Source: Psammoneis japonica
Lineage: Eukaryota
NCBI GenBank assembly: GCA_008632985.1
Contig: QPGO01000006.1
Span: 803,138-867,137 of the forward strand
Length of the DNA: 64,000 nucleotides
Direction: 5' to 3'
The notes under the pieces are model-generated. The model searched no databases. It saw only the letters and a program-made list of their open reading frames with translations, and had not been told where the DNA came from. This document shows positions 7,461 through 59,949 of this stretch, one piece after another (positions within the stretch are counted from its first letter, which is position 1; every line of letters begins with the position of its first letter). The position numbers were made by a program, and so were the translations under genes.

Positions 7461-7695
7461 GAAACCCCCCATCGAAATCTCGAACCCGGCGGCAGGCGGC
7501 GCGCGCAGGAATAAAACTGAACAATGTCATCGTTCAAAATCCTCAATCCGCGCGCAACGACAATGATGCGCATAGCCAACACCAAAAATTACCGCCAGCA
7601 ACGCAATCAACCACAACACCAGAAAGCAAATTACGACTCGATTCTATCCACCAAACAGTCACAAGAAACAACAACATGTCAAGACAATAAAAATT

Positions 7696-10521
7696 ATGCT
7701 GACGACTCCCAACGAATGGTTTGCCTCGTATTTGGCGTCCACCTTGTCCCATGTGTTTCTCAACGTTAATGACCCCAAAAAGTCGATTCAAGCAAGTTTG
7801 CGTTCGAATTTCTTGGAATTGTCAAACGTTGAAATCAAGCCCATTTGTCGTAACTTGCTTCCACACGCCAATGGAACAAGTCGGACGATGATTTTATCGG
7901 GATCCATGGAAAAGTTACGTTTGTCATGGAAACTTGGCCGCTCTAGCTTGATTATTCAAAACGTGTCTCTGGCCTTGCAGGGATTTAGGTTGAAACTGAC
8001 TCTGCTTCACGGAGAAAATACCACAGAAAGACGAAAAGAGCAAGACGGACAACAGGAGACTCTAGAAACAGTAGAAAAGCCGTCTTGGAAGGAATTTCTG
8101 GATCAAAAAGTGAATGAAATTCTGCGAAACTTGTGCATAAGCATTGCAGACTTTGAGTTTGTTTTGGATTTACCAAAGGACGACAATGTCGGTCTACTGA
8201 AATTTGTCATTGGTGCCAGTTCCCTAAGATTAATGCCTTGTTTGGAACAAGAGCAGAAATCTGAAAAGGATGTGGTGTATATCGAGGACTCGCAACAACC
8301 ACAAGACGAGAGTAGCAAAGCATCGTCAATTCGTGGTGAGTCACAAGCGAAACTAGAGGACCAACCGCGCCAAGAGCTTCACTTGGAGTCTCTGTACTGT
8401 GACATTGCAGATAACGCAACAGAGCAGAGTGCGTCTACTGCAGGAAAGTCAACAGAAAGTTCCAACGTCAATGACGACGTCGTCTATCATTTGATTCGGC
8501 CCTTTCATTACAAGGCATACCTTACACACGCCTCTCCAAGAGGTGTATTTGGTGGGTTGGGACGAGGTTTGGAGTTTACTGGAGAACCGATCACCGACAG
8601 TGAAGTGGTGTTTTGTGTTTCACAAACACAGGTGCAGGCATTAAGGCTCTTGATTCGTTCCTTTTTTCCACCGGCGCCACCAAGAGCCGGCGGCGTATTG
8701 AAGCGCCTTTCGAGAATCTCGGAAAGCAGCAAGAGTCTACTCATGGGAACCACACCAGAGTTTGAAAGAGTGGCTGCAAGCAACTTGAGAACCGACACAA
8801 TATCCAAGAAACAACGGTCACTTACTTTCAAGGTGTCGCTGTTTCTTGTTGCTGGATTACTCATGTTTTCTGGCTTTTGGCGTTTTGGATTGTTGTGGAT
8901 ATTCGCCGTCATCTTGTCGTCTGCGGTGGCTATCTTTGTTGTAGCGCTCGCAGCTCTCTGGTGGTTTCAACGACAATACAACAAGAACACTCTGCAATCC
9001 CTGAGAGGTTCCTTTCGACGCTTTATCAACCCGCAAGTGTATTCTGTGTTTTCCATCCCTCTTTCGCCCGTGACAATGGAACTTCCCAATGACTACCGAC
9101 TGACTATTCCCAGAGCCATGGTTACATACAGTCTAGAGGGACATGTTGTTGATTTGGAAATGCCCAGTCTGGACATGACGTGTACAAGTAAAGGCGACAA
9201 CGATTCATCAAAAAGTAAGCAACGTCCCTATGTATCCATGTCGGGCATAATTGGAAGAATACGACCCGGCACCGTCTTTCATGTCAGCCTTGTCGACAAT
9301 CTATGCTTTCCCGATATAGTGGAATCGGTTGAACCACTTTGTGATGTGACGATCCGATTCGTGGAGGGATCCCTTTGTGTTGGAACGAGATCGACTGTGC
9401 AGCTCAGGTTGTTGAACAACGCCAAAGACGAGGAAAGTGACGACCAACATGACGGCGACGGCGAGACCATCGAGACTCGTGCGAAGAAGAAAAGCGCCCT
9501 TCCCTTTCCAATGACCGTCACTGTAGAAAGTCTTGAATTATCACGCCAAGGCGATAAAATCATCGTTTATGCATTCCGGGATCTCCTCGTGGAGTCTCGG
9601 CCCGAAACTCATGGAGTGTTTTGGGAGGTTAGCGCCACGGATGTACGAAACAATATGTTGCAACTCTCCCACGTTCATTTATCCGGACTTGACGATGCAT
9701 ACCGCAATAACGTGATTCACCGCTTCAGCTTTTCAGCCAATCACGCCCTTCTCCAATCTGGTTATTCCAGTATAGACTGGAGCAAGTTGAACAGATGGAT
9801 TGAGGGCAAATCTAGCAAGGTCATTCACCTTCCACATGCTCGTATATCTTCGATACACCTTCGCATGATGATGTGGAACGACAAAACCAACTCGGTCGCC
9901 GCGGCAGTAACAAAACTTGATGTGGAACCGTTTATTGGCGACTCCAAGACGACGTTTAGCGATGTGACCCGTTACTATTCCAAGACTGTCATGCAAAATT
10001 CCCCTACCCTCATTTCAAACTCTGAAATCTTTGGAAGAACATTTGCGGATACGGTCCTTACAGCTGTTGGACCAGCAGTTCTCGCGGCAACCCCGATCGG
10101 CCCAGTTGCAGGGTTGGCGGCAGTCGTTGCCTACGATGCAACCAAAGCAACCATCAACAAAGGTAAAGAGAGGCGAAATGCTCGACCGGATGAACGTGGT
10201 AGATTGACCGACTTCTCGGAAGGGCTCGTTGCGACTGGAGTCGAAGCTGCTGCGGCGGGTAAACATCAAACGGTGACCATGGAAGGAATGAAAGCCTATG
10301 CCAACGCCAAAGCCAATGAAACGCGAGAATATGCAGAAGAGAACAGAGCCAGGCTGGGTGCTGCAACCATTGGTGGCACGGTTACTGTTGGCGTGTCTTT
10401 TCTTGCTTCGCCTGCTATTGGCGTTCCAGCTGGGATTGCAGCAGCAGCAGTTACGCACAGGGCTATTGAGATGGATGAAAGAAGGCGCGAGCGGGCGCCG
10501 GCGGAGAAGAAAGAAGACTGA
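7696..10521 (+). CDS. 941-aa protein with Chorein-N/VPS13-like N-terminus, central transmembrane hairpin and ATG2-C-like amphipathic C-terminus
   Basis: Long uninterrupted ORF with normal composition. The N-terminus FASYLASTLSHVFLNV..IQASLRSNFLELSNVEIKP..LSGSMEKLRLSW resembles Chorein_N. Two hydrophobic helices lie near aa 377-423, and the C-terminus is G/A-rich. The domain calls are tentative. Confidence 0.6.
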   Translation: MLTTPNEWFASYLASTLSHVFLNVNDPKKSIQASLRSNFLELSNVEIKPICRNLLPHANGTSRTMILSGSMEKLRLSWKLGRSSLIIQNVSLALQGFRLKLTLLHGENTTERRKEQDGQQETLETVEKPSWKEFLDQKVNEILRNLCISIADFEFVLDLPKDDNVGLLKFVIGASSLRLMPCLEQEQKSEKDVVYIEDSQQPQDESSKASSIRGESQAKLEDQPRQELHLESLYCDIADNATEQSASTAGKSTESSNVNDDVVYHLIRPFHYKAYLTHASPRGVFGGLGRGLEFTGEPITDSEVVFCVSQTQVQALRLLIRSFFPPAPPRAGGVLKRLSRISESSKSLLMGTTPEFERVAASNLRTDTISKKQRSLTFKVSLFLVAGLLMFSGFWRFGLLWIFAVILSSAVAIFVVALAALWWFQRQYNKNTLQSLRGSFRRFINPQVYSVFSIPLSPVTMELPNDYRLTIPRAMVTYSLEGHVVDLEMPSLDMTCTSKGDNDSSKSKQRPYVSMSGIIGRIRPGTVFHVSLVDNLCFPDIVESVEPLCDVTIRFVEGSLCVGTRSTVQLRLLNNAKDEESDDQHDGDGETIETRAKKKSALPFPMTVTVESLELSRQGDKIIVYAFRDLLVESRPETHGVFWEVSATDVRNNMLQLSHVHLSGLDDAYRNNVIHRFSFSANHALLQSGYSSIDWSKLNRWIEGKSSKVIHLPHARISSIHLRMMMWNDKTNSVAAAVTKLDVEPFIGDSKTTFSDVTRYYSKTVMQNSPTLISNSEIFGRTFADTVLTAVGPAVLAATPIGPVAGLAAVVAYDATKATINKGKERRNARPDERGRLTDFSEGLVATGVEAAAAGKHQTVTMEGMKAYANAKANETREYAEENRARLGAATIGGTVTVGVSFLASPAIGVPAGIAAAAVTHRAIEMDERRRERAPAEKKED

Positions 10522-11170
10522 ATGCCTGAAGCTTATCTTCGGAATTATACAACGCAACTTAGCAAATAATGATGCTCTCTAGAACGTCACACAAATTTGT
10601 GATGAGCTCTGCAGTAATACATTTACTTCAGTAAGAGCTCAGGTCTCAGCGTTTTGGCACATATCCTTGTTTTGCTTTTAGGCTCTTCTCAGAGTAGCTA
10701 ACAGCTTCTTATGCACACATCTCATTCACTGCATGATTGTCGAGGACGAGAACAGGTGGGACCTTGTCATCATGTGTGTCTAGCGGATAACGTTATTCCA
10801 TCGGTCCAATGTAAGCTCAACATGTTCGAGTGTACACAGTCAGTTTCCGAAGTTTCCTTCTTTTCGCCTCATCTCACATGATGTCGAGATGCGGTGTTCC
10901 ACAACCCTCATTTCACTGCAAAGTGGACCACAGCACCACTCACATCGCCGATTGTTTGGTTTTTTCCTGAGAGGTTCAACTTGAAATTGCAGAGTCCAAT
11001 GCCAAGAGTGGCAAAACCAAGCCCATGTTGGATTGCACGCAAACTGATGGTGCAATCCATCACCCCCTGGAGGATTGAACCATGGGCAGGAAATGTTGTT
11101 TGTGCTTCCTGCGCAAAACACACTGTCTTGATGCTTCTTTTAAGGCTTTTGGTTCAAACCATGCAGCCCA
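9698..11170 (+). repeat. Direct segmental duplication, copy 1 (3' part of the 941-aa gene plus downstream flank)
   Basis: cataccgcaataacgtg.ttcaccgcttcag at 9698 matches 15171. Similarity continues through the stop codon and on to gcttttggttcaaacc (~11145-11160 vs ~16591-16606). Confidence 0.95.
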
Positions 11171-12640
11171 ATTTGAGTTTTGAACTGTGATGCTTTTGGT
11201 TCAGCAAAAAGGACAATGAAAACTCACAGTGCCGTTGCAACACACATTGCCAGGTTTCTTGCCATTCATCAGCCTTGTCGCACAATGAACATGTCATTGC
11301 ATGCTCTTGCGCACAATTTTTAGAAAATCTGCACACAAAGATGTTTCAGCTGGTGTCCTTCTTCTCTGCTTTTTTTTTGTGGACCATGCAAGTGCAGGAG
11401 GTTGGCTGAGCTGTGCAAGTGCAGGAGGTTGGCTGCCAGCAAGAGGGCACCAGCAAGCAAACTGTGTGTGCTGCTGGCACCTTGTCTCAGCCTGCTGCTC
11501 TCTTCTGACTCATCTGCCAACCAAGACAGCAAAACTTGGCAAACAGGTTTGGCAGAGTCAACTGGCAACAACCCTTGTTTGTTTGTGCAACTTGTGTTTG
11601 CTGGAAATCATCCAGCAAGCAATTTGAGGTCACTTTTGGTGCAAAGCAGGCCAACAGAAGCAAAAAAAGGCAACTTCAGCATCGGAGTGCAAGCTCCGAA
11701 AGTTGCTTTGATCAACAACATCAAAAAATTGCCAAACACAAAAGCTTGCAGAGAAAGGGTGCACTTGTCTGTGCTTGAGTTTGTGTGTGCTGTGTGCAAG
11801 AGCTTGTCCAACTGTGCTTTGAGAATGTTCCAGCTGCGGTGAAAATTCTTGAAGTGTCTCTGACTGAAAATGAGTGTGACAATGTTGAGTGTTCAGAAGA
11901 GCATTTTTTGACATTGTTGCCAACAAATGCCTCCCTGAGCAGGGGGGGATCTCATGTCAGTTGGCCCAGGTGTGCAGTGTTTTCTTCACTTTTTGATTTG
12001 TGTGCATCTGTGCTGCAAACGAGTTGGTGACATTTGCTGCACAGCCAGTGTCCCCTGGAAGCTGTGTCTTGTCAGTGCACACACATTGAAGATGTCACTC
12101 ATGTGAGACCAACCATCTGTGCAAATGGGTCAAAAACAATGCCCACACCCAAACGCCCAAGTGTGGAGGCCCCTGGCCACAAGGGGCACGCTTGCCAAAG
12201 GGGAAGAAGGGAGAGACACTCTCGCAGTCATGCCAACAGCAGCCTTTGTGACGTGAGAGAGTCATGCACACAGAAGGCTGACCTTCAGCATGCAAAAAAC
12301 ACTCAATGAGTGCTTGCATGAAGTCTGGCATGGAGCGGGCTTTTGCACAAAAGTGCTGCAGCGCCGCTGTGCCGCTGCCAAGCACACGCACAAAAAGGAG
12401 CCTTTTTTTTCATCAGCTGTGTTTGTGAGGAGAAGCATGTGACCCACCAGCTGGTCTCATGTCTCTGGGAGTCAGAAATGCTCCATGACAGGGTGAAGAA
12501 CATTGACCTTCTCTGTGCAATCATTTAAAACGAGAATTGTGACTCAAGCCGAGCATCACCATGACACCCAAAGAATCGGCTGACACCACCCATCAGCGGT
12601 CAGACCACTGCTGCTGCCAAGCCAAACCCAACTGCTGGCA
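10880..12640. other. Hypermutated CpG/TpA-depleted domain D3
   Basis: TA and CG are nearly absent. The left part is a mutated homologue of the unmutated sequence at 16330-16620. Confidence 0.85.
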
Positions 12641-12713
12641 GACGGCCAGACCGCCGGAATTCGCTCGTTTATTTTCTTTTTTTGATTTTTGATTTTGATC
12701 GTTTCTATGCTTC

Positions 12714-14987
12714 ATGCTTCACTGTTCGCGGTGCCTGTATCCAAATGATCCAACTATGGCTAATTCTCGTCCTCCTCCTTTGTCGTCATCAGTGGACGTG
12801 CAATCGGGTCTCCGGTGGCTTCACACCGAGTGTCGTACGGGACAGGTGGACTTTGTCAAGTTGGCGCTCAAGGCTGGAAACGATCCATTGGCTACATGTT
12901 CCCCCGTCAACGCGTCTGCCCTTGCGACTGCAATCGAGTATGACCATCTCGAGGTCACGAGAACGATCTTGGAGCACTTGTTACTAATAGAAGGACAAGA
13001 GTCTACTGGGGAACAAGGACGACGGAGACAACAGAGGACGGGAGACGATAGAGAGTCGTTGAAGACTGCATTTCATGCTTGTTGCTACAACGACCGGGCG
13101 GCTCACGCGAAACTACTTCTTGAAGAATACAGTGTGATCGCTGTGGAGGATACTGATTATGGTCTAGAGCTATCGGCTACGAATGGGTGTAAACAGATGG
13201 TGACTTATCTGCTGGAATTATTCGATGAAAAGCCGTTAGTTGTCCAAACACCTTTTCCGTGGAAGACTGCTACGATTTGTTCGGCTCGGCAAGGACATGC
13301 AGAAGTAGTCTTGCTACTAGTGCAGACCTTACAGATGCGACAAACCGAATGGGACCGGTATGGAATAGGGGATCGCTTCATCCTGTGTGCTGCATCTGGA
13401 CAAAGGCAGCAGTCACAACACTATCTCTCTGCGTTAATGGGTGAGTATTCCGCGGAGAAGGCAGATGAAGTAGTCTCAACCATCAGCAACGGGTTTGCGT
13501 TGAGTGTTTGCTGCGGTCACTCAGATCTGGCAAGATATGTCCTCGATACATGCAAACCATGTGCAATCGACGTCTCGGTGGAGGATAACCTGGCGGCACG
13601 GGCTGCCTCTGTTCTTAATTTGTCTTCCGTTCTGGATGCTATTTTGTCATACCCAACTTACGATCCTGCACCCAAAATGAAATTCGAATCCGCTCCCAAG
13701 TGTAGCAAATTGGTGGATTTGGATCGCTTAGCGGCATCACTGAAGGTTTGGTCAGAGTGTGGGCGTCCATTTCCCAGGTGTCAGGAGCTCTCACAAGATT
13801 TGTTTGTGGACCCGTTTCAATGCTCCGTCTGGTTCATCTGCCATCGCTGGAACTCGGAGATGCATCCCGATCCTGATGGTCAACAAATCAACGCTGTCGT
13901 CGCTTTTCTTTGTTCCCATCGTCGGAAGTATTGTAGTTGCTTCCGCCTCCGCTCCTCTTGCACCATCCACCGGGACTCTGACGTGTCAAAGGAACGCATT
14001 GGAATCTTTTACGACTACATGTCATTGCCTCAAAAGCCTCGCACGCCCGAAGAAAAACGTGTCTTTGCCGATGGCTTGAACGAACTGGACGAAATTGCTA
14101 TGCAAGCTCACTTTCTTGCTATTAGTCCGCTACAGAATGTGGACGAGTTCCTTCATCGCGGATGGTGCTTTGTTGAAGTCTGTCTTGGTCTGGACTTTGG
14201 CAGTGACTTTAAGTTTGTGTGCTTCGCGGGGGAATCGTTTCCAGGCTCGAGAACTCACAGTAGCGAATTCGCTCTCAGAGCTGTTCAATCCAGCAGACAT
14301 GTCAAACATCCCCATATGGCGCACAGCAATCATATTGAAGAACTGTTTCAAAGGAACAACTTCAAGTGCACAAATGACTCAGACCTAAGTACGCTGTCAA
14401 GGCTTCTCCGCGCCCACATTCAGTCAGCGCAAGGACGAAACAGCAAGAGAGTTCAGCATCGGCTTATTGAGAAGCAAATAAATGATCTCCAACAAGCTTT
14501 TGAAAGACATTTGCAGCAGGTGTCGGGATACTCTTTTGAGCAGAAGGTCAAGTTGGCGAGGATCAAGTGCGTGGCTCTCAGCTTTGCGATTTTGCGGCAA
14601 AACCCTAATGATCATGACGTGAGATCCAAACTCGAGAGCACAACCCTTCGTTGGCCCGGCATTTCTGGAGAATTCCTACATGCTTACGATGATCAACTCG
14701 ACTTGCTTGGCCAAGAATGGCGCTGTGTGTATGAGACGGCGTATCCAACGCTAGAGATGTTGTCTTGTCAAGAGAGTGCAAACGCATTTGATGCCGCCAA
14801 GGATAGGCTGGTGATTGCTATCAAGAACTCTTCACCAGATCAACAAATACAATTCATACGACATCTTGTTGCAGAGCTCTTCCCAGAGGGTGCCTTCCAG
14901 TTGATGATTCTTTGTCCACATCTACGGAGAGCATGTAGCGAGCCGTTGCTGCTACAACCCACATCTCTTCAATGCACGACAATGTAA
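12714..14987 (+). CDS. Ankyrin-repeat protein with a HET-like (heterokaryon-incompatibility / TIR-related) domain
   Basis: N-terminal ankyrin-like units: LHTECRTGQVDFVKLAL, ALATAIEYDHLEVTRTILE, SATNGCKQMVTYLLE, SARQGHAEVVLLLV. These are followed by WFICHRW...HPDPDG...IFYDYMSLPQ...FLHRGWCFVE, which matches the HET-family SH.W / D...Q / R.W...E pattern. The ORF is intronless (757 aa). Confidence 0.7.
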   Translation: MLHCSRCLYPNDPTMANSRPPPLSSSVDVQSGLRWLHTECRTGQVDFVKLALKAGNDPLATCSPVNASALATAIEYDHLEVTRTILEHLLLIEGQESTGEQGRRRQQRTGDDRESLKTAFHACCYNDRAAHAKLLLEEYSVIAVEDTDYGLELSATNGCKQMVTYLLELFDEKPLVVQTPFPWKTATICSARQGHAEVVLLLVQTLQMRQTEWDRYGIGDRFILCAASGQRQQSQHYLSALMGEYSAEKADEVVSTISNGFALSVCCGHSDLARYVLDTCKPCAIDVSVEDNLAARAASVLNLSSVLDAILSYPTYDPAPKMKFESAPKCSKLVDLDRLAASLKVWSECGRPFPRCQELSQDLFVDPFQCSVWFICHRWNSEMHPDPDGQQINAVVAFLCSHRRKYCSCFRLRSSCTIHRDSDVSKERIGIFYDYMSLPQKPRTPEEKRVFADGLNELDEIAMQAHFLAISPLQNVDEFLHRGWCFVEVCLGLDFGSDFKFVCFAGESFPGSRTHSSEFALRAVQSSRHVKHPHMAHSNHIEELFQRNNFKCTNDSDLSTLSRLLRAHIQSAQGRNSKRVQHRLIEKQINDLQQAFERHLQQVSGYSFEQKVKLARIKCVALSFAILRQNPNDHDVRSKLESTTLRWPGISGEFLHAYDDQLDLLGQEWRCVYETAYPTLEMLSCQESANAFDAAKDRLVIAIKNSSPDQQIQFIRHLVAELFPEGAFQLMILCPHLRRACSEPLLLQPTSLQCTTM

Positions 14988-15170
14988 TGCATGCGCAGGA
15001 TCAAGGTTCGAAACGCAAAACCTACCGAACGTGGTTTGTTTATTCACTTGCACTCAAAAAACTTCGTAGTTTGATGGATGTCTCTGATGTAGCTCTGCCG
15101 TAATTTCTTAGTACGGGATTGAATCAGGAACGCTTTTCAATCCGCGGAGAGCGGTTCTAAACAGTCCTTT

Positions 15171-16620
15171 CATACCGCAATAACGTGGTTCACCGCTTCA
15201 GTCACGCCCTTCTCCAACTTGGTTATTCCGGTATGAATATGGACTGGAGCAAGTTGAACAGATGGATCGAGGGCAAATCTAGCAAGGTCATTCACCTTCC
15301 ACATGCTCGGATATCTTCGATACACCTTCGTATGATGATGTGGAACGACAAAACCAACTCAGTCGCCGCGGCAGTAACAAAACTTGATGTGGAACCGTTT
15401 ATTGGCGTCTCCAACACGACGTTTAGCTATGTGACCCGTTACTATTCCAAGACTGTCATGCATAATTCTCCTACCCTCATTTCAAACTCTGAAATTTTTG
15501 GAAGAACATTTGCGGATACGGTCCTTACAGCTGTTGGACCAGCAGTTCTCGCGGCAACCCCGATCGGCCCAGTTGCAGGGTTGGCGGCAGTCGTTGCCTA
15601 TGATGCAACCAAAGCAACCATCAACAAAGGTAAAGATAGGCGAAATGCTCGACCGGATGAACGAGGTAGGTTGACCGACTTCTCGGAAGGGCTCGTTGCG
15701 ACTGGAGTCGAAGCTGCTGCAGTGGGTCAACATCAAACGGTGACCGTGGAAGGAATGAAAGCCTATGCCAACGCCAAAGCCAACGAGACGCGAGAATATG
15801 CAGAAGAGAACAGAGCCCGGCTGGGTGCTGCAACCATTGGTGGCACGGTTACTGTTGGCGTGTCTTTTCTTGCTTCGCCTGCTATTGGCGTTCCAGCTGG
15901 GATTGCAGCAGCAGCAGTTACGCACAGGGCTATTGAGATGGATGAAAGAAGGCGCGAGAAGACGCTGGCAGAGAAGAAAGAAGAGTGAATGCCTGAAGCT
16001 CATCTTCGGAATTATACGACGCAACTTAGCAAATAATGATGCTCTCTAGAACGTCACACAAATTTGTGATGAGCTCTGCAGTAATACATCTAAGAGGTCA
16101 GGCCTCAGCGTTTTTTGGCACATTTCCTTGTTTTGCTTTTAGGCTCTTTTCAGAATAGCTAATAGCTTCTTATGCACACATCTCATGCACTGCATGATTG
16201 TCGAGGACGAGAACAGGTGGGACCATGCCCTTGTCGTCATCTATCTAGCGGAAAATGTTATCCCATCTGCCCAATGTAAGCTCAACTCGTTCGACTGTAC
16301 ACTGCCACTTTCCGAAGGTTCCTTCTTTTCGAAAAGTCTCAAATGATATCGAGATGCGGTGTTCCATACCCTTATTTTGATGCAAATTAGACTTTAGCGC
16401 CGCTCACTTCACAGTTCGCGATTTTTCGACAGGTTGAATCTGAAATGTCAGAGTGTAATGCCGAGCTGCAAAACTGAATCCATGTTGGATCTCACGCGCA
16501 AACTGATAGATGCGATAAGTCACCTCATGGACTCATGGAGGATTGAACCTTCTGAGAATGCCGGCACGCGAAACATGCAGTCGTGACAATGCTTTTGGTT
16601 CAAACCGTGCCATGCAATTT
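15171..16620 (+). pseudogene. Partial duplicate (copy 2) of the 941-aa gene C-terminus plus flank; 5'-truncated
   Basis: ORF 15185-15988 is nearly identical to the last ~260 aa of 7696-10521. There is a 12-nt deletion near the junction, and no upstream exons are seen. Confidence 0.85.
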
Positions 16621-16681
16621 GCTCACCAAACAGCAATGTTTTGGGATTCGCGGCAGAACGGCAGATACGGACATAATTACG

Positions 16682-18235
16682 TTACCAATCCAAGAGCGCA
16701 GGCTTTTCCGTTGTGGTAGGGGAGAGAATTAAAACCGCGCGCTTCCCATTCGTAACATAATAGTCACCGCCTAGATTCTTTCTAGGATTTTCAGCCGAGG
16801 ATTCACCAACGCCCTTCACGTATGCAAACCGATTAACGCGACCACACCTAATCAGATCAGTAACAACGTAATCCCTTGCTTCGTCAACATAGGGATCTAT
16901 CTTGTGCGTTGTGCCGGGAAATATAGGAGCAAGATGAACTCCAATATCCCGGCTAACTTGGCCAACCCATACGGGCTTGCCTTCAAACTGCATCGTGCTC
17001 ATCCAGAGCCGTAGGTGAAGACGCTGATTGATGGACCCTCTTGCTCTCTGCAGCGCAAAATCTTGACTTCGTCCATACAAAAATAACGGGCTCACCGGGC
17101 TGTATCTGTATTGCGATCCGAGAACAAACGACTTCCTGTCTTGATGGAGCTCTGTAAGGAAGTTGTTTCTGTTCATCCCAACGTGTGGCAAAAGCGGCCA
17201 GCAGCGTGTTGAAATCTCCAACTACAACCAAATTCACTGGATCTCCCTCTTTGGTTCCGCCGCGATTCGATACCGCACGAGGTTCCAGTTCTAAACGAGT
17301 CTTTAGCACCTCTTCACTGCAATCAACGATCTCATCCTCCGGTATCGTTGGTTCCCTGCCGTCATGGTCAATCCTAGCCATCCGCGGCACTGGAACCGAA
17401 AACACAAACTTCTTCTCATCGAGTGCCGGCTTTGGCTTGATCAGACCAATGGTGACCGTTTTAGTGCCAACATCGAGAGGGGTAAATACAAATCCGCGCT
17501 CGACGGAGCCAGCCTCTACCAAACCCTGAGGAAAGGATTGGGAACAGAAAAATTCATCCATTTTTTGTTTGCGCCACGTGCAGTGACTAATTTCAATGGT
17601 AGGAGGATGGCGAGCGGTAGAAATAGGAGCTGCGATAAAAAGCCCTGAGCGAGGATCGTCTTGAGGCTCTCAAAGTGACACACCATGGCAGCCTCGAGGG
17701 GAGGGTAGTAGTTGGAATCGAGACTTATCCGATCCAAAAACAGCGCACAATCGCCCTTTGAATTGTCCACCTCGATCCAGCAGGGCTGGAGTCCGCGTCG
17801 GGCCATGGACACGCCAAAGAAACGGCGAGATTCCTTCGCTCCAAGGACGGCAACCTTTACCTTGACCCCATCGTCTTTTTTTTCCTCAACTCGAGTTAAA
17901 AAGGATTGAGCGTTTGGATCGGGCTTGTATTGTGTGAGGAATATCTGTTTCATACGTTCCAAAACGCCCCTGTTGGCAATAACATCCTGACCCTCCGTGC
18001 CGTCCTCGGCATCCAATGTGGTTGCGCCTCCCCGAATCAAGAGCGGTTTGTTGTTTTCGGCAATAACTATTGGACCATTCGATTTCGAAGAGGGCATGTT
18101 GTTATTCCTGCGCCACGGTGCCAATTCAGGGCGAGCACGAGACATCATGGGTGGGATGCTATTTGTATGAAAGGCTCGGCAGGGTGACGAAGATGCTGTC
18201 AATAGAATCGATATTAGGCCATGTCGCGAGAACAT
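16682..18235 (-). CDS. LssY C-terminal-domain protein (bacterial-type) with an N-terminal signal/plastid-type presequence; two frameshifts
   Basis: Motifs GDPVNLVVVG, YRYSPVSPLFLYGRSQDFALQRAR..RLHLRLW, WVGQVSRDIGV and TTHKIDPYVDEARD occur across ORFs 17516-18280, 16983-17561 and 16682-17221. The N-terminus reads MFSRHGLISILLTASSSPCRA-F. Confidence 0.7.
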
Positions 18236-19200
18236 GGTGAGAATCTTGCTGGCAGCAAGTAAAGGGCGCTTGCAGAGCACAGCGCAAGGCAGAGGGAATT
18301 CCTACCACGGGCAGGCAGCAGAGAGTACAGATAGAACTTTTGAAGACGCTCGCATCATTTATCTCAAGACGACTGTTCTGATTTCATTCACAGGCATGTC
18401 TCGAGGGCGTCAGCAAGCAAGTGGCTTGCTCTGCTCACTCTGCTTCCAAGGAATTCTTCGTCTCTACGGTATCTGCCGAGTGAGTCAGTGGAACTTTGTC
18501 AACTGCATCGGCGGAGGAGTCGATCGGCAACATTCTGTTTGTTGGCACGATTTCTTTTTCAGGCAGTTGACAATTTCAAATTATTTTTGGCGCGAAAAAG
18601 AGAGTAACGGAAAAATAATGGTTCTTATGTGTTCAAGTATGGGAACTAATGTCAATTGATAAGCTTAAAGAATGGATAGTAACAACTAAATTAACGGATA
18701 GAAAACCTCTAAGATGAAGATACTATTATGTCATTATGGGTTTGACAAAGGAATGTTATACCTTCCTACAGTGTGAAAATCATAAATAACTAAGATCAAC
18801 ATAGCATATTCACGGGATCAAATATTTTTGAAATTTTGCTCTTCCAACATGCCCGCGCGGACGATGACCAACCCGACATATTTGGCGAATATTTGTGTTA
18901 AAACTTATGTATACAACCTTTTGAATATATTTATGAACAACGGATGCTAAATTAAATAGAACCTCATAATTTAATGGTTTAGATATAGTTTTATTAAAAA
19001 CCTTAAGAGATTTACATAAATATTTTTTTGTATCACGTCGACAGAGCGCTTTTTTGAAATTTTGGCAGTTATCGATCGTGTAGAACTCACGTGAAATTTG
19101 GTCTTCACCCTTGCTTTACGTCACACGCCAAGCAGGCCTCACTTTTCCAACGATTCACTTTTCTGACGATCCAACAGAGGCTTACTATTGTTGGTTCACC

Positions 19201-23329: not shown

Positions 23330-26300
23330 ACTCTCACGCCATTTGAAGAGCAAACGGCACTTCCAAAAAGTCTTTGTCATTGTGAAGACAGAGGATGGCA
23401 CCTTGCTTGAAGCTCATTCTCTCAAAAGAGGGGACCATCAGAAGAGGGAGGATGGCAAGTGTGATGACTTGTGTCGCACTGCCAAAGCCCCACCAGACCC
23501 AGGTTTGTGTTTGCGAGGTTGCATCGCTGTTGAGAAAGGGGCATCTGTCCACAACCTTGGTGGGCTTTTGAGACACAATTGACCACATTCTCAGCCCACA
23601 CCACTCTTGCACAGCAGCAGCTCTTGTTCTTTCTGGCAGGATGAACTTCTCGCAATTTCATTGAGCCTTCCATTGCACCACACCCCCACAACCGGCTTGT
23701 GCTCTCCTTGCACAATTTGACATTTTGCTCTGACCCCAACGTTCAGAGTGCCCCAAATCTCTTCTTTTTTTTGTGAAACTGTTCAAGAAGCTGTGCAAAC
23801 TCTACCACCACAGGAATGTTGCACAATCTTCTATGTGGCTTTCCTTGCACTCTGTTGTTTTTGACCCAAGCTGTGCCAATGCCATGGTGGGTGCTGTTTT
23901 TGCAGGAAAACTGTGCACAAAAATGACCTGCTTTCAACAGCCAAGCTGAGAGACAAACACAGCAGTGCTTGCAAAAGTCACTCAAACAAAAACAAAGTGC
24001 AGAAATGAGTGTGTTTTTGAGGATGGAGAGAACTCGTTTGATTGAGATGACTTTTGGGGCTCAAAGTCGACTCTCAAGGGGGGTCATTCCCCCACTTTTT
24101 CTGTGGCTCATGGCATTTTGCCCAAACAGGTTGTGTGGTTTCAGATCAGAAAGAATGACACAACCCCTGAAAGCACTTCTCACACAGGGCACGGTGCCCC
24201 ACACATTGCACATTGCAGCCATTGTGCTTTTGTGAGCAGCAGATGGAAATGCAGCACTTTTGGCAAAATGCCCCAAACAATGTGAAAACAAACATGTTTC
24301 AGTTGGACCGAAGTGCAGTTGTTCGGAGATCAGGGAGTGGTGCAGCCATGTTGCTTGGCATGTTGGCATTCAAGTCTGCAAGTGCGCATTTGACAAAATG
24401 CATCCAGGAGCAACAAGTGCAAAATGTGCCAATCAGGATGGTGAAAACAAATGAAAATGTTGCACTTCCAACAAGTGAGTGTCTCAATTTCAATCTGGAA
24501 GGGGGTCGACCAATGTTTGCATGCACGTGCGTGCACTGTGAGATGGTGGGGTTTAACGACCTGTGACTCAAGGCCTTTTCTGTGGGTCTCTGATGGAGCA
24601 TGCTGCAATCCAAGAAAAAATGGCTGATGAGGAAAGAAAAAGAGCTGATTTTCATTGTGGCCTGGGTGTCAACAGCAGGCACCATGGAGAAAGATTGCTT
24701 TGACTGTGTTTGAATTTTCTGCATGTGTGCAGTGGTGCCAGATGTTTCTGGAGAGCTTTTTCTAAAAAAAAAGCTGGTGTGCTGGAAGCAGCTCAAATTT
24801 TCAATTGTTGGCTGGGGTGTGGCAACACAAGAAATCATCTGCATGATCCAAAGATCCACAATCTCAGCACATGCTTGCAGTTGAGGTAAAACTTTGTGGC
24901 TTGGCTGCTGCCATGTCACATCTTTGTCAAAGGCAAACCAGAAAAGCCATTGAGAACATGCCAAGAAGACATCAATGGGATGTGATCCAATGGCTGCAGT
25001 GGCACCTCCTGTTGGATTGCTTGTTGGAAAAAAATTGAGTGCTCAGCTGGACTTGTTGTCACTGAGACATGAGCCAAAGTTGGAGCCTCTGACCTCTTTC
25101 TTTCCAAAAGAGGAAAAGCCACAATCATGTCAGCTTTTCAGTCCATCAAATCCAAATGCATGGTTCTGTTCCATCAACTCTGCAAAAGTGCTCAATGATC
25201 TCCAGCTGGAAGAATTTTCTTGCTTCTGGCATGGGCTGTGCCATGATGACAAAAACCGTGTCACTCTCATCTTGTTTGTGATTTGACAAATGGATGTGGT
25301 GCCAAATGTGCACAGCTTTGTGAGAAAACAACGGAGTTGGTCAACAAAGCTTGGCACAGAAACCAAAAGAACACATTGCTGCTTCCATGTTTGCCAGAAC
25401 ACCAAAAGCACCTTGAATGCCACAAAGAGTGCAAAGCAGTTGCTCTTGCAGACCACATGAGCACTTGCTTTGTCTCAGCTTTGGCAGGATGGGGTGGAGT
25501 GATTGTGCAGACTTTTGACAGCTGTTCAAGTGGTTGTGTGAACCTTTGACTGCAGTTCAAAAGTGCACAAAACCCACATGAGTTTCAGGCTGGGGGGAGT
25601 GACTTGTTTGGAGCATTCTTGGGGTGTGCCTTGGGTGTGGTGCATTTGTGTGGGTTGTCTGTGATTGTTGGTTGCTGCAGGTGTTCATTGACATTTTTGA
25701 AATCTGAGTGGAGGTGTGTTGAGCAAACAACAATGGCCATCCATTGGATTTGTGCTCAAATGAAAGCAGTGCAATGAAGAAAATGTATCTGGACATTGAC
25801 AAAATGGGGGACAGTGTGCACGCACAGAAAACATGAAAAAAGTCAGCCATTCTAAACTCAAAAGCTTTGCCTCAATGACCCACTGGCTTCATTGCATGTG
25901 GCATTGTGTCATCTGGTCCCATTTGGCCTGCAGCCATTGTCGCTGCACAAGGAACATGCACCAGAGCACCACTTTGCACATCCATGGCAGGCCCAAAAGG
26001 TTGCCAGTTGCAGCTGTGTGTTCTTGAGAGAGATGCAACATTGTTTGATGGCTTGTGCACCACTCGCCTGTGTTGGAGTTTCATGGCTTGCCAACTGGCA
26101 CACGTTTGGTTTCATGAACCCCAAACTCACTGTGTGGCTTGCAAACACACTCCCAATGCCATTGACTGCTGTCACCATGCCAGCTGGGTGCAGAAGCTAA
26201 AAAGTGAGCACAAGACCTGCAACTCAACCCATGCTGCAAGCACAAAGAATTCACCAAATCATGCACAATTGTCAGCACATCTTGCACTGCAACATCATCT

Positions 26301-32300: not shown

Positions 32301-32940
32301 TGAGAGACCACAAACTGGGCATTCTCACACTTGTTTGGCAGACATTTCAAGTCACAAGCCAGTTGCCAGTTGCATGAGACATGAAATGTTGATTTGGGAA
32401 CTTCCACTGGACTTTGTGGATGGCAGCAAGGTCTCTGCAAAAAGCACCTTTCTGTGTTCTGGTGTGCAAGACCATGTCATGATCACTTGGCAAAGATGTG
32501 GGGCCATGCACGCAGCTGGGCCCATTGCACATTCTTTAATTTTGATGACAATGCTGGGACAAACAAAGATGATTGCTTCGGGATTTCTTGTCAGATTTCA
32601 TGGTTGAGGAGGAAGAAAAAGAGAGCTCCATGATTCACTCAGTCACTCCAACAGACCTTTTGGATGTGAGCTCAGCCTGCACATCTTGGCAGTGCTTGGC
32701 AATTGGCACCTGCAACATGGCCAGCAATGATGGTGGTGAAATGCTTTGCCTTTTGATGCACGTTGGGACCATGCCTCAGGCAGGTGCACCCAGCTTTTCA
32801 GCCCAAGGTGACAGGGAAAAAAGAAAATGATGGGCATGACAACAGTGAGCAAAAGGTGTGCCAGTTTGTGGAATGAGAGAGGAATTTCATTTCTGTTTTT
32901 ACAACTGAGAAGGAGATGAGGCTGACGGTCAACCTGGCCA
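23330..32940. other. Hypermutated CpG/TpA-depleted domain D4 (nested TE relics)
   Basis: About 9.6 kb with TA and CG both rare. Edges are sharp at ~23330 and ~32950. Confidence 0.9.
25830..27653 (-). mobile_element. Degenerate Ty1/Copia (CoDi-like) LTR retrotransposon: candidate short 5' LTR, gag with zinc knuckle, possible pol remnant
   Basis: CCHC knuckle CWKCDKVGHVKKDC (~26490-26535). Gag-like segments QADGCMETMRNVSSECV and KVKAFNATIVGQHAKAVHHKIE. A weak PDDTM.HAMK motif near 25900. A 118-bp TG...CA segment at 27536-27653. No second LTR was found. Confidence 0.55.
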
Positions 32941-34575
32941 CTGTTCGGATGTGTCACCTCTGGCGAAAATTGTGACGAAGCCCGGTCAGTGCTCCCCCGG
33001 CTGCGACTAAAGCGGAGTGTTTATGTCATGCTCGCTGAGCAGACGTCTATGCCTTTTCAGCACAGGGTCAATGCAACATATCGTGCAATGATGGAATCTG
33101 GCGTTCAAGACGGACTAACGGTCCGTTGAAATGATTATTTGTTAGCCACGATATCGAAGTGCAGTGAAGGAATTTGGTGAGCGTGTTAGAGCTATGCTGT
33201 CGCATCGATTCTCTAAAGCAAATTTCTATCTTTATCGGCTACTGTCATGTATAAATCTTCTCATGAAACCACCCTTGAACACCAAAACGCTCTCGATTGG
33301 TTTGTAGCACTTCATGTGGCAGCGACACGGAATCAAACAAAACGAGCGTTCCCGCTCGAGGTACAATGTCTCGGATTCGTTCTCCACCATCCTCACCCTG
33401 CGGACCAACACTCTTGTTGTTGTTGAAAGAGATTAGCGATTTGGGAGCATCAATCAAGTGGAAACGATCCCGGTCTCGTGGATCGTCCACCATGAGTTTA
33501 CGAGCCATGGCGTCACCACCGGCCAAGTAGAGTGCAATGTTGGCAAAGGGCTTTTGGGACAAGTCGCGCTTCTTGCCATTTCGATCCATGGTGTACAACA
33601 TGCAAGTTTCATTCTCGGGTCCTTCGCGGGAGGGATCCAAAAAGACGGGTTGTTCTCCTTGGTCGTTGGTGGTAGCTCGGAGCCAACCGACTTGAAGATC
33701 ATTGCGTCGAGCACCGACTCGAGATGACGCTGGAAAAGCACGTTCGTGAAGTCTCAATTGACCACCGTCTTGTTCGGACCAATCGTCATTGAGGTAAATG
33801 AGCCACGTAATGGATCGTCGAGAGGCATTTGGTTTGAGTGGGAGTTTGGATCCATTGGGTCGTTTCAGTTCCAAATGATGCTCATCCGTGTGTCTAGCCA
33901 ACAGAGCGCCCTCGCCGTACCGTAAATATTCCATTTCATGTGTTTGCGCCACATCGTTGGCAAGAGTCGGTCGATCGGTCAAGCCTTTGGCCAAGACAGC
34001 CTTGACCTGAGCCATTTTGAGTTTGAGAGTCTGACGCAGTTCGTAATTGCCGACTTGTGGGTCGACAAAGGGCCCGTCTCCACCGGCGGATGAAAAACTC
34101 GGCATGATCCAACGATCATTGGCAGCTTTATCCGCCTTGTTGGGGTTTCTCGATAGAATAAAATTGGTAAAACTACCCGATTCAAAGCAGTTCTTAACGT
34201 CGTCACACACGGCCCGAGTTTCATCCGGCGTCAGCCAGTTGGGTATAATCACGGCACGACCCTCCTCGATTTGTTCCAGAGTTCCGGGTGGAAGAATGTC
34301 ACCATTAACATTTGTTTCAACAGCGACTACTGCAGTTTCCACTGCTCGACGCCATGCGGCTTCGGCACCCAACCCGGCAAGCGAAGCAACCATGGCTTGA
34401 CGACGAGACAGAAAAGACGACAGTCCTTTTTTCTTTTCAACAAAAGTTTCCTCATCGCTGCACTCTTTTGCAAAGCATCTCGTGTTTAGCAGTCTGTCAC
34501 TAGTATAAGCATCAGTTGTTGTTGGTTGAAATCCATTCCAAGCATCGACAGTGCACAACAACACAACAAGACATA
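32570..34575 (-). repeat. Inverted segmental duplication, copy 1 (2OG oxygenase gene plus 3' flank)
   Basis: The reverse complement aligns by eye with 57040-59015 along its length, apart from small deletions. Confidence 0.95.
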
Positions 34576-34618
34576 TAAGCGCTGGAATCGTCACCATGGT
34601 TGGCATGCGGCGCCTCAT
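33245..34618 (-). CDS. 2OG-Fe(II) oxygenase (prolyl-hydroxylase-like), probably plastid/thylakoid-lumen targeted
   Basis: Intact 457-aa ORF with YLRY.EGALLARHTDE (HxD), RSITWLIYLNDDW..DGGQLR and PRAGTLVLFDS..LPHEV..T.RERF..GWF. Signal peptide ..TVDA-W and a twin-arginine-like SRRQAM. Confidence 0.85.
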   Translation of the reverse strand: MRRRMPTMVTIPALICLVVLLCTVDAWNGFQPTTTDAYTSDRLLNTRCFAKECSDEETFVEKKKGLSSFLSRRQAMVASLAGLGAEAAWRRAVETAVVAVETNVNGDILPPGTLEQIEEGRAVIIPNWLTPDETRAVCDDVKNCFESGSFTNFILSRNPNKADKAANDRWIMPSFSSAGGDGPFVDPQVGNYELRQTLKLKMAQVKAVLAKGLTDRPTLANDVAQTHEMEYLRYGEGALLARHTDEHHLELKRPNGSKLPLKPNASRRSITWLIYLNDDWSEQDGGQLRLHERAFPASSRVGARRNDLQVGWLRATTNDQGEQPVFLDPSREGPENETCMLYTMDRNGKKRDLSQKPFANIALYLAGGDAMARKLMVDDPRDRDRFHLIDAPKSLISFNNNKSVGPQGEDGGERIRDIVPRAGTLVLFDSVSLPHEVLQTNRERFGVQGWFHEKIYT

Positions 34619-56200: not shown

Positions 56201-57039
56201 CAACCACCTTTCCACTTTTGTTTTCAACCAACATTTTGGAGCAGCTTGCCTTGTGTTGGGACATCTTGTGCTCAAGCTGTGCATCACTGCACTGTGATCA
56301 CATTGTGCTTTTGAAGAAGCACAACTTAGAAATGTCTGCAATGTGCAGGTGCAAGAAGCAACTCTGCCAACACAGTCTGGAAACAAGCTGTTGTTGCTTT
56401 CCTTTGACTCACTGACTCAAACAGCTCCATGGGAAAAGTTTTGTGAATGGTCTGTGAGCCAGGCACAGCTGTCACCTCCAGCACTTTTCCAGTGGTGGAA
56501 ATGAACAAACAGCTGTCATCTGTGGCCTGTCTTTTGCAACCCAGTGGGTTTGTAGAGTCTAAGCTGGGCCTGGTTGCCATGTTTGCTGCTGGCAGCTCTG
56601 ATGCCATTGTTGCATTTCAAGCTGATGGCCCTTTGGTTGTGGTCAGTGAGCCAGGCCCTGCGAGCATCATTCCAATGAACGCCAAGTCCACCATGTCTTT
56701 CATGGCACATGCAGATGAGCCTTTCACAGCCACCAGTGCTGGTTCTCTTGCAATGCCCACCAACTTGGCAGCACTTGATGACCTCACATCTTGCATGCTC
56801 CAGATCCCAAAGATTTAAGTCCTTGGCCACTCCACTGCTCCATGCAACAGTGGCATCATTCGCAAGATGGAGGGTTGCACCTCTGCTGGCTGCAGCCCCC
56901 ACAACATTGTCATCTGATGTGCTGATGAATGCCACCATTGCTTTGTTGGTGGTCAAGTCTCCTCATCTTTGGATTTTTGACTTGGTCACTGCCAGATTTG
57001 GATCTGTGTGATGCTGCCCTTTGATGATTTGAGCGGTTG

Positions 57040-58345
57040 TTTGTCTTGTTGTGTTGTTGTCCACTGTCAATGCTTGGAATGGATTTCAACCAACAACTGC
57101 TGCTTGTGCCAGTGACAAAGTGTTAAAAATGGGATGATGTGCAAAGGATTGCAGTGATGAGGAAACTGCTGTTCAAACAAACAAAGGACTGATGCCTTTT
57201 CTGTCTCATTGTCAGGCCATGGCAGCTTCACTTGCCGGGTTGAGTGCCAAAGCAGCTTGGTGTTGAGCAGTGGAAACCACAGCAATGGCTGTTGAACAAA
57301 ATGCAAATGATGGCATTCTTCCACCCGGAACTCTGGGACAAATGGAAGAGGGCTGTGCCATGATTGTGCCCAAGACTGTGTGCATCAACATTGAGAACTG
57401 CTTTGAATTGGGAAGTTTTGCCAACTTCATTCTGTCAAGAAATCCCAACAACAAGGTGGACAAAGCTGCAAAAATGATTGTTGGATCATGCCAAGTTTTC
57501 CATCCACCGGTGGAGACGGGCCTTCAATCAACCCACAAGTTGGCAATTGTGAATTGCGTCAAACTCTCAAACTCAAAATGGCTCAGGCCAAGGCTGTTTT
57601 GGCCAAGGGCTTGACCGATTGACCAACTCTTGCCAACGATGTGGCTCAAACACACAAAATGGAGCATTTGCGGTGTGGAGAGGGCACTCTGTTGGCAAGA
57701 CACATGGATGAGCATCATTTGGAACTGAAATGACCCAATGGATCCAAACTCCTGCTCAAACCCAGTGCCTCTCAACAATCCATTGTGTGGCTCATTTGCC
57801 TTGACAATGACTGGTCCACACAAGACAGTCAATTGAGACTTCATGAACATGCTTTTCCAACATCATCTTGAGTCAGTGCCCAACGCAATGATCTTCAAGT
57901 CGGTTGGCTCCAAGCTGCCCCCAATGACCAAGGAGAACAACCCCTCTTTTTGGATCCTTCTTGCAAGGGACCCAAGAATGAAACTTGCATGTTGCACATC
58001 ATGGACTGAGATGGCAAGAAGCGTGACTTGTCCCAAAAGCCCTTTGCCAACATTGCACTCTCCTTGGCCGGTGGTGATGCCATGGCTTGCAAACTCATGG
58101 TGGACCATCCATGAGACCGGGATTGTTTCCACTTGATTGATGCTCCCAAATTGCCAATCTCTTTCAACAACAAGAGCATTGGTCTGCAGGGTGAGCATGG
58201 TGGAGAACAAATCCAAGATGTTGTGCCATGAGTGGAAATGCTCATTTTGTTTGATTCTGTGTCACTGCCACATGAAGTGCTGCAAACCAATCAAGAGCGT
58301 TTTGATGTTCAAGGGTGGTTTCATGAGAAGATTTGTGCATTGCAG
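57040..58345 (+). pseudogene. Hypermutated pseudogene copy of the 2OG oxygenase at 33245-34618 (duplicated flank continues to ~59015)
   Basis: Fragments GILPPGTLGQMEEGCAMI, FANFILSRNPN and LFDSVSLPHEVLQTNQERFDVQGWFHEKI match the intact gene, with TGA stops and deletions. Confidence 0.95.
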
Positions 58346-59949
58346 CAGTCAATGAAGGCAGAAATTTGCTCTAGAGAATCAATGCAGCAGCACAGCTCTA
58401 GCATGCTCACCAAAGTCCTTGACTGCACTCCAACATCCTGGCTGACAAACGATCATTTCAAGAGACCATTGGTCTGTCCAGAATGCCAGATCCCATCATT
58501 GCATGACATGTGTTGCAACAACCCTGTGCTGAAAAGGCACAGACGTCTTCCCAGCAAGCATGACACAAACACTCCGCTCATGTTGCAGCCAGGGGGGGGG
58601 GCACCAACTGGGCCTCATCACATTTTTTGCCTGCAGCAACACATCCAACCAGTGGAGAGTTGATGTCAGCCTCATCTCCCAGTTTTTTTTTTAATGGAAA
58701 TGAAGTTCCTCTCTCATTCCACAAACTGGCACACATTTTGCTCACTTTTGCCATGCCCATCATTTCATTTTTGCCCTTTCACCTTGGACTGAAAAGCTGG
58801 GTGTGCTTGCCTGATGTGTGGTCCCAATGCGCATCAAAAAGGTGGGGCATTTCACAACCACCATTGGCCATGTTGCAGGTGCCAATCACTGAACACTTCC
58901 AAGACATGCAGGCCAAGATCACATCCAAAAGTTCTGTTGGAGTGAGCAAGTGAATCATGAGGCTCTTCTTTTTCCTCCTCAACCATGAAATGTGATGAAT
59001 CCCACAAGTCATCTTGGCCATGTTGTGTTCTGCCATGAAATGGCAAGGCCAGGAAAATGCAACTTGCCAGGCACAGAACAGGGAAATGGTGGCAAGAAAG
59101 GAGAGAGAGTGCATCCAAACCAACTCATCGACAAAAGCAAATGTCCAAATAGATCAAGGTTGCACCTCATCTTTACGACATCGAAACTGGGGATGCAATC
59201 GCCAATCAATGCACCGCTTCTTGCATGGTCCAAGCCAACAGATTTGCAGGACTCTGGCAGTGAGTTGCAAATGGACCAGAACTTGTCCACACAGGGAGAG
59301 TGAATGCTTTTAGATGCCACCTGTCAATTGTGTTCACTGTGCATGCATCCTGTCTTGGCTGTTCATTGCGGCTCTTGGGCATCATCACTGATGGTTCCTC
59401 TGGAAAGAGATGCAAAGGGTGCTTTGGTCATCTGGAGACTGTTGTGACTGTTGAAGTGGCAATCCAAAAGCAGCCCAAGTGTGCTGTTGGCCAAGTGCAG
59501 GGAAGGAACACAAAAATTCTCAGTTGTTTCATTGCCTTTCTTTGTGTTGATGTTGGATGTCTGACAGGTCATTGTGGTCTGGAGCAAACCAAGGGACATC
59601 ACAAACTTGCTTGATGCATTGTTTGGAAATGGCAACAAACACAGAAATTACAACAGGGTCATCCACAGGGCAGACATGGTTGATCAGCGCACCATTGTGG
59701 GAATTCTTTTTTGTCATGCATTGACTGGAAGTGCAGCCACAGCCTGTGCACATGCCAAGTGACTGTCGAGCTGTGCCAGAGGAGGAAGAACCAGTGGCAG
59801 GACTTTCACCAGCTTTCTTGGACAGGGCCTTGAAATGCATTAGATCAAGGATGGGGTGGGTGGCACGTCACCAATGTGTTCTTTGAGGAGCACATGCATC
59901 TTTTTTCAGTTGGAAATGACAGATGTAAAAAAAACACATTGCTTTTGAG

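Follow-up and report, generated by a model that had tools for sequence, protein, structure and literature searches.

Apparent location-dependent loss of CG and TA in one copy of a duplicated host spacer of the diatom Psammoneis japonica

The duplicate, its neighbours and the composition domains

The window analysed here (the whole stretch of 64,000 nucleotides) is a mosaic of ordinary DNA and of domains in which both CG and TA are depleted and CA/TG is enriched. It encodes an EMP70 protein whose closest named relatives belong to diatoms (75-80% identity). Observed/expected ratios inside and outside the domains were 0.16 and 1.02 for CG, 0.06 and 0.56 for TA, and 1.82 and 1.17 for CA/TG. Loss of CG to TG/CA is thereby restricted to islands, and the GC content of the domains is not reduced. 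A two-state composition model, for which the window served as the training set, identified 72 domains in a 694-kb stretch of the contig, 26% of which they occupy. The model works without the letters of copy 2 (defined below), and the edge sharpness that it returns is biased towards sharp. One in-domain repeat of 1.45 kb (26070-27520) had at least 61 matches genome-wide, the long ones being 69-74% identical. Throughout, genome-wide matches were counted in the 91-Mb assembly, and a signature loss is a site at which one copy of a duplicate has CG or TA and the other copy has CA/TG at the same place. The features of the locus are as follows.

7696..10521, forward strand: gene A, an open reading frame of 941 codons whose 3' part is duplicated
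9698..11175, forward strand: copy 1, the 3' part of gene A and its tail, defined by self-alignment
10894..12641, no strand assigned: domain D3 of the two-state composition model, CG/TA-depleted, CA/TG-rich and single-copy
12714..14987, forward strand: ankyrin-repeat gene (PF12796, E=3.7e-11) in the linker between the copies, CG and TA normal
15171..16621, forward strand: copy 2, 5'-truncated, open frame kept, CG and TA kept over its full length
16682..18280, reverse strand: gene B (LssY_C domain, PF14067, E=6.4e-35), convergent with copy 2

Gene A had no Pfam family at E<=0.001 and has a single distant paralogue (32%) on another contig, which was rejected as an outgroup for the duplicate because of this distance. 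Gene B has 70 homologues (best 65%) and is single copy in the genome; most of the named matches of its family are hypothetical or bacterial proteins, and two closer relatives reach 57-65%. In the assembly it is split over three frames, public contigs have extra bases near the breaks, and the breaks are probably assembly errors. At 16800-17500, two haplotypes, each at about half depth, were present in runs X1 and X2, and 10734-15298 was covered by one contig.

The direct duplicate described in the original prediction is real (9698-11175 with 15171-16621 in self-alignment), and no older homology was found upstream of it. Its coding parts are near-identical and keep CG and TA, as had been stated: 32 substitutions were counted in 812 aligned bases, with 53 CG in copy 1 and 49 in copy 2, 27 and 28 TA, and 4 and 7 signature losses, respectively. 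The tail of copy 2 (16358-16621) holds 14 CG and 7 TA in 264 bases. All five motif pairs that had been quoted as examples of divergence are present, four of them as plain substitutions, but the pair ctgataga/ctgatgg coincides with an indel of 1 base, which makes it ambiguous. No third copy that could polarise the changes was found with two tail queries, each of which gave two genome matches, so that some of the 'losses' may be gains in copy 2. Mis-assembly, which had been offered as a reason to doubt the duplicate, is unlikely, since public-run contigs span 7500-9831, 10734-15298 and 16195-16762 and cross the outer junctions and both tails; these contigs come from one study, possibly from the source sample, and in them the near-identical part is collapsed in its middle. 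Public contigs on copy 2 show copy-1 letters at five places, through either assembly collapse or fresh conversion. Short direct repeats, possibly rearrangement scars, occur at the junction of D3 with the duplicate (two copies of a 14-base motif with a spacing of 46 bases, at 11144-11205) and inside D3 (two copies of a 22-base motif with a spacing of 27 bases, at 11387-11435).

The left edge of D3 lies 372 bases after the stop codon of gene A and its right edge 73 bases before the start of the ankyrin gene, and the domain extends over ~280 bases of ordinary host spacer at the end of copy 1. Since copy 2 ends ~60 bases from the stop of the convergent gene B, the counterpart of this spacer in copy 2 is probably the 3' untranslated region of gene B. 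Contig-wide, the distances from domain edges to open frames (introns were not modelled) ranged from 35 to 6010 bases, with medians of 614 and 402; being so widely scattered, they argue only weakly for a boundary set by transcription.

Two steps along the duplicate

According to the original prediction, copy 1 diverges directionally from copy 2 within 10740-11170, starting at ~10860 and fading before the 3' end of the gene. The direction was borne out, with 15 CG/TA losses in copy 1 and 3 in copy 2 (binomial p=0.0075), and the differences are thus neither symmetric nor free of CG/TA bias; however, only 18 of the 83 substitutions are of the signature type, and 39 are transversions. Two change points could be identified. 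Transversions increase sevenfold at ~10775 (interval 10752-10821; 15/1056 vs 39/370), a step reached by none of 1000 permutations, and are flat beyond 10760. The signature changes at ~10892 (interval 10865-10924; permutation p=0.047 within the old stratum). These points delimit three zones.

9698..10774, forward strand: zone A, transversions 15/about 1055 (1.4%), signature losses 7/94 in copy 1 and 8/95 in copy 2
10775..10892, forward strand: zone B, transversions 13/118 (11%), losses 3/13 and 1/11, old stratum outside the domain
10893..11175, forward strand: zone C, transversions 26/252 (10%), losses 11/13 and 2/4, old stratum, host spacer inside the domain

The counts were nearly stable across four alignment settings (11/13 or 10/12 for zone C). 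As a neutral baseline we used similar-age duplicates far from domains, in which 459 of 1399 sites (0.33) were lost (21 pairs, both directions counted, pairs not independent). Zone B had no excess over this value (3/13, p=0.56), whereas zone C was far above it (11/13, p=0.0002), copy 1 having lost CG at 7 of 9 and TA at 4 of 4 sites. The TA evidence in zone C is thin, as it comprises 4 sites, of which 1 lies in the preferred context (see below), compared with 103/159 on the contig (p=0.13, not significant). The composition model, independently of copy 2, sets the left edge of D3 at 10894. The claimed signature excess therefore exists, but its onset lies at ~10893, as a step rather than a fade. 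Over the 26 informative sites, log-likelihoods were -12.9 for a step, -14.3, -14.9 and -15.8 for ramps of 100, 150 and 300 bp, and -17.9 for a flat rate, which, with so few sites, is moderate evidence for a step and not proof.

The alternative in which silencing and mutation have their source in an inserted repeat, spread outward and weaken gradually towards the 3' end of gene A appears unlikely, although several observations speak for it. Plotted against distance to D3, as had been suggested as a check, loss rises towards the domain beyond 10760 (Spearman 0.36, p=0.06), and isolated losses in the preferred context are present at 10702 and 10777. Against these stand the neutral state of zone B and the fit of ramps of 150-400 bp, which was 2-3 log units worse than that of the step, so that the claim of fading is not upheld. 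A pooled analysis of loss against edge distance, with seeming TA loss up to 300 bases outside, was discarded because it is pseudo-replicated and dominated by young in-domain insertions.

The inserted repeat required by this alternative also finds no support in D3, whose core (11176-12500) contains 16 CG and 1 TA in 1325 bases. D3 has one genome match, compared with at least 61 (65-89% identity) for an in-domain repeat used as positive control. No Pfam family was above the cut-off in any of the six frames, no clear terminal inverted repeat was detected, one of the six frames had no match when searched against a protein collection and the genome, and neither the six frames nor purine/pyrimidine words had a match in 694 kb of contig. 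Nevertheless, D3 could be an old, low-copy element that has decayed past detection.

Compared with run X1, D3 has 13 differences, all within 11193-12387, whereas the flanking genes have 4 in ~5 kb (~11-fold); these may be a mix of strain, allele and assembly differences. Nine of 11 transitions fall within the cycle of CG, TA, CA and TG (p=0.03). Within 10734-11192 no difference to X1 could be observed, at low power. The differences in the D3 core include three TA and two CG letters that occur in X1 only, which suggests ongoing turnover among CG, TA, CA and TG.

Location, duplication and the mutation spectrum

The window contains a second, inverted duplicate (32591-34593 with 57022-58995), which serves as a control pair and shows the spectrum more cleanly than anything else in the window.

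33246..34593, reverse strand: outside copy, a 2OG-Fe(II) oxygenase gene (PF13640) that keeps 86 CG and 32 TA, with 0 losses
57022..58995, forward strand: inverted copy inside a domain, with 64/86 CG and 26/32 TA changed to CA/TG and transversions at 39/1312

Over 33246-34593, all 90 losses lie in the in-domain copy and none in the outside copy, which supports the earlier proposal of position-dependent targeting, as opposed to canonical RIP pairing. In the count that also gave the per-strand spectrum (see below), 75/101 CG and 36/46 TA of the in-domain copy were changed to CA/TG. The outside oxygenase copy has a domain edge of its own ~300 bases past its stop codon. In the inside/outside columns of 132 duplicate alignments from the 694 kb, 556 losses were found in the inside copy and 31 in the outside copy, a comparison that is partly circular because pairs overlap and the two classes are set by composition. 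Many old gene duplicates outside domains have normal CG and TA in both copies. It seems, then, that location, rather than duplication, decides which DNA is mutated; the locus itself is a modest example, with ~13 decisive sites. A 390-base family with terminal inverted repeats was considered as a further position control and rejected, because its four intact copies beside or inside TA-poor DNA (G000:C8:374218, 488205, 499964 and 599314, with 27-30 TA kept) are simply young.

The original prediction had also set the process apart from homology pairing as in RIP. This is correct for canonical RIP, but it overlooked the DIM-2-dependent RIP of Neurospora, whose pattern is that of repeats left intact around a mutated linker; there, mutation of the single-copy linker between close direct repeats runs into the repeat ends (10.1101/344036). 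We consider a displaced, homology-triggered process of this kind, with transcribed parts of the linker protected, to be improbable. D3 is indeed single-copy and lies between close direct repeats, with the linker-side end of copy 1 affected; among 13 pairs, all three linkers longer than 4 kb contain a domain, and TA is somewhat scarcer in linkers than in the outer flanks (0.45 vs 0.57, p=0.04). However, 10 of the 13 linkers are without a domain, domains occur in as many outer flanks (3) as linkers (3), and only 4 of 53 domains lie in such linkers. At this locus, the far end of the linker (14988-15170) is intact, with 12 CG and 8 TA, as are the 300 bases at the start of copy 2, with 18 CG and 16 TA. 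Moreover, RIP makes C-to-T changes only, as stated in two sources (10.1101/344036; 10.64898/2026.01.13.699255), and no A-to-G changes.

Per strand, C>T at CG occurred at 76/203 sites and T>C at TA at 38/92, compared with rates of 0.03-0.07 in other contexts. Loss of TA was context-dependent (RTA 30/45 vs YTA 8/47), the preferred target being the A of 5'-TAY; this preference was milder on the contig (103/159 events, 29 pairs). Relative timing could be examined in two cases. A 7.2-kb element pair (G000:C8:447297-454540 and 738966-746206) has 1% transversions, 436 CG kept, 37 TA kept and 80 CA/TG flips; the pair is young, with 230-base terminal direct repeats. A copy of the 390-base repeat split by 4.4 kb (G000:C8:629816-630004 with 634366-634555) has lost most of its TA and few CG. 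Together, these two cases indicate that TA is erased faster than CG is lost.

In somatic hypermutation, polymerase eta introduces A-to-G errors at WA motifs close to deaminated cytosines. The presence of A-to-G changes at TA beside C-to-T changes resembles its signature, but this candidate is disfavoured, as A-to-G at AA is not raised (TT 16/244=0.066 vs TC 15/226=0.066; TA 0.41) and TA is lost without prior loss of CG.

The near-identical coding parts had been presented as duplicates spared outside a domain, with recent gene conversion named as a possible objection. It is true that both copies keep CG and TA; however, conversion is likely. At four-fold sites, zone A has 2 transversions in 135, compared with 13/118 in zone B (p=0.002). 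In the 250 bases of non-coding DNA that come first, the count is 4/243. Both classes thus stand at 1.5-1.6%, and selection is no ready explanation of the near-identity. Zone A, with pS of 0.076 and pN of 0.023, is probably a younger stratum homogenised by later gene conversion. These parts are accordingly a weak control, and the spared DNA that does carry information consists of the tail of copy 2 over its full length and of zone B in either copy. It should be noted for similar scans that near-identical duplicates can look spared merely because conversion has reset them; since conversion can mimic sparing, transversions are needed as a clock before a gradient is claimed.

That no conversion took place, and that after one duplication general mutation or lost constraint was ~sevenfold higher from 10775 outward as collateral around D3, has little to recommend it beyond three points. 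A single event is simpler, the pN/pS of 0.30 shows some coding constraint, and D3 has 4 differences to X1 outside the cycle in ~1.4 kb, compared with 4 in ~5 kb of the genes. On the other hand, the four-fold sites and the first non-coding bases are equally low. Copies deep in domains, in coding DNA, have lost about three quarters of their CG/TA at only 1.4-1.8% transversions, so the 11% of zone B, with 10 of 13 CG/TA intact, cannot come from domain exposure. In another pair on the contig, ~290 bases are eaten up to an abrupt edge, and transversions are not raised (10/288 inside and 20/568 in the next six bins). The lack of X1 differences in 10734-11192 also speaks against raised general mutation, at low power. 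Chance, an assembly artefact or alignment noise caused by the age and many indels of this stretch may be dismissed as very improbable, for although sites are few, 12 gap openings lie beyond 10860 and the boundary was chosen after seeing the data, the zone C excess is robust to alignment settings, a public-run contig matches 10734-11192 without a difference, and the signature is overwhelming in the control pair.

Proposed mechanism and comparison with known systems

Taken as a whole, the observations are best explained by a putative silent-chromatin domain with CpG decay and a faster TpA mutator, a sharp edge and later gene conversion, a reading to which we assign a probability of about 0.6. 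An old event would have duplicated the 3' part of gene A together with its spacer; D3 and the ankyrin gene would have ended up between the copies, given that the tail of copy 2 still adjoins gene B, and the spacer of copy 1 would have lost gene B as its neighbour. D3 would be a silent-chromatin domain with two processes. In one, CG would become TG/CA, most simply by deamination of DNMT5-type 5-methylcytosine; in the other, faster one, TA would become TG/CA, with the A of 5'-TAY favoured, most simply by deamination of A to inosine in DNA. The domain would cover the last 280 bases of copy 1 and end within ~100-150 bases near 10895, at an edge most likely set by the transcribed 3' end of gene A or by a positioned nucleosome. 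In copy 2, the same spacer lies between two convergent genes and would have been spared. Finally, gene conversion would have reset 9698-10774 to near-identity.

With regard to candidate enzymes, 27 matches to the cytosine-methyltransferase domain (PF00145) are present in the genome, and CG methylation on TE islands of the diatom Phaeodactylum needs DNMT5a (PMC9998398). Adenine deamination is the leading guess for the cause of TA loss. Five deaminase-domain matches were found in the genome, and none of the 4 scanned stood out. One of them (L082:319-1791, reverse strand), which shares its frame with an IPNS-like 2OG-Fe(II) dioxygenase, was rejected because its closest solved relatives are guanine deaminases; Atlas matches to this candidate were obtained only at 0.78, and no mention of a deaminase-dioxygenase fusion was found in the available part of PMC3239186. 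Judged by sequence, the frame probably belongs to nucleobase metabolism, and that it forms one protein is only putative.

More tentatively, we suggest a chromatin-guided DNA adenine mutator, changing A to G in TAY, that would need neither repetition nor foreign origin. It might act by default on all DNA outside active transcription units, including single-copy host spacer, outrun CpG decay and stop within about one nucleosome of a transcript end. If chromatin state, rather than homology or foreign origin, is what is read, a eukaryote would possess a mutator that makes targeted A-to-G changes in DNA and whose borders are sharp and can be mapped. Silent DNA would be rewritten to CA/TG without loss of GC, as a homology-independent counterpart of RIP common to a diatom and a distant alga. 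Such a process would extend a one-species preprint to diatoms and explain how old elements become unrecognisable here, and the locus would offer ready test sites, as an identical spacer is mutated in one place and spared 5.5 kb away.

Several known systems share parts of this pattern. Like ascomycete RIP, which in fungi can leak into single-copy DNA beside its targets (PMC9453070), the present process makes regional, dinucleotide-specific transitions, forms genome compartments and reaches into single-copy DNA. Unlike canonical RIP, which is premeiotic, depends on RID/DNMT4 and mutates both copies, it affected one partner only, with losses of 90 and 0 in the two copies of the control pair and of 11/13 and 2/4 in those of zone C. 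Half of its signature is A:T to G:C, T>C at TA being as frequent as C>T at CG, GC is not lowered in the domains and most linkers are spared. DNMT5-methylated TE islands of diatoms provide another parallel, in that CG is changed to TG/CA in islands, the genome is otherwise undepleted and methyltransferase domains are present (PMC9998398); such CpG decay does not explain the loss of TA, which in young elements precedes that of CG.

The closest likeness is found in Bigelowiella natans, for which TpA-specific hypermutation of integrated viral DNA to TpG/CpA has been described in a discrete single-copy region (Mettrop et al., bioRxiv preprint 10.64898/2026.01.13.699255). The same preprint reports a ~1000-fold raised rate in mutation-accumulation lines and TpA-poor, CpA+TpG-rich clusters with TE-type domains, and proposes adenosine deamination by an enzyme as yet unproven. 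The two systems share the change of TpA to TpG/CpA (36/46 TA in the control pair and 4/4 in zone C) and the restriction to discrete regions that include single-copy DNA, here 72 domains in 694 kb with D3 having one match. Compared with the main text of the preprint, in which TpA alone is affected, CpG is also erased in the same domains here (75/101 CG in the control copy). The host is a diatom, 26% of the 694-kb stretch is affected, and our data consist of sequence and give no rate. The target in B. natans is viral; the targets here include host DNA, namely the spacer of zone C and the control pseudogene, a dead copy of a host gene. A preference for a 3' pyrimidine (TAY) is a further difference from the main text of the preprint. 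No report of TpA erasure in diatoms was found in the literature searched, which left most subscription papers outside. What is new relative to the B. natans kind is the diatom host, the joint loss of CG, the host spacer and pseudogene as targets, and perhaps the TAY preference.
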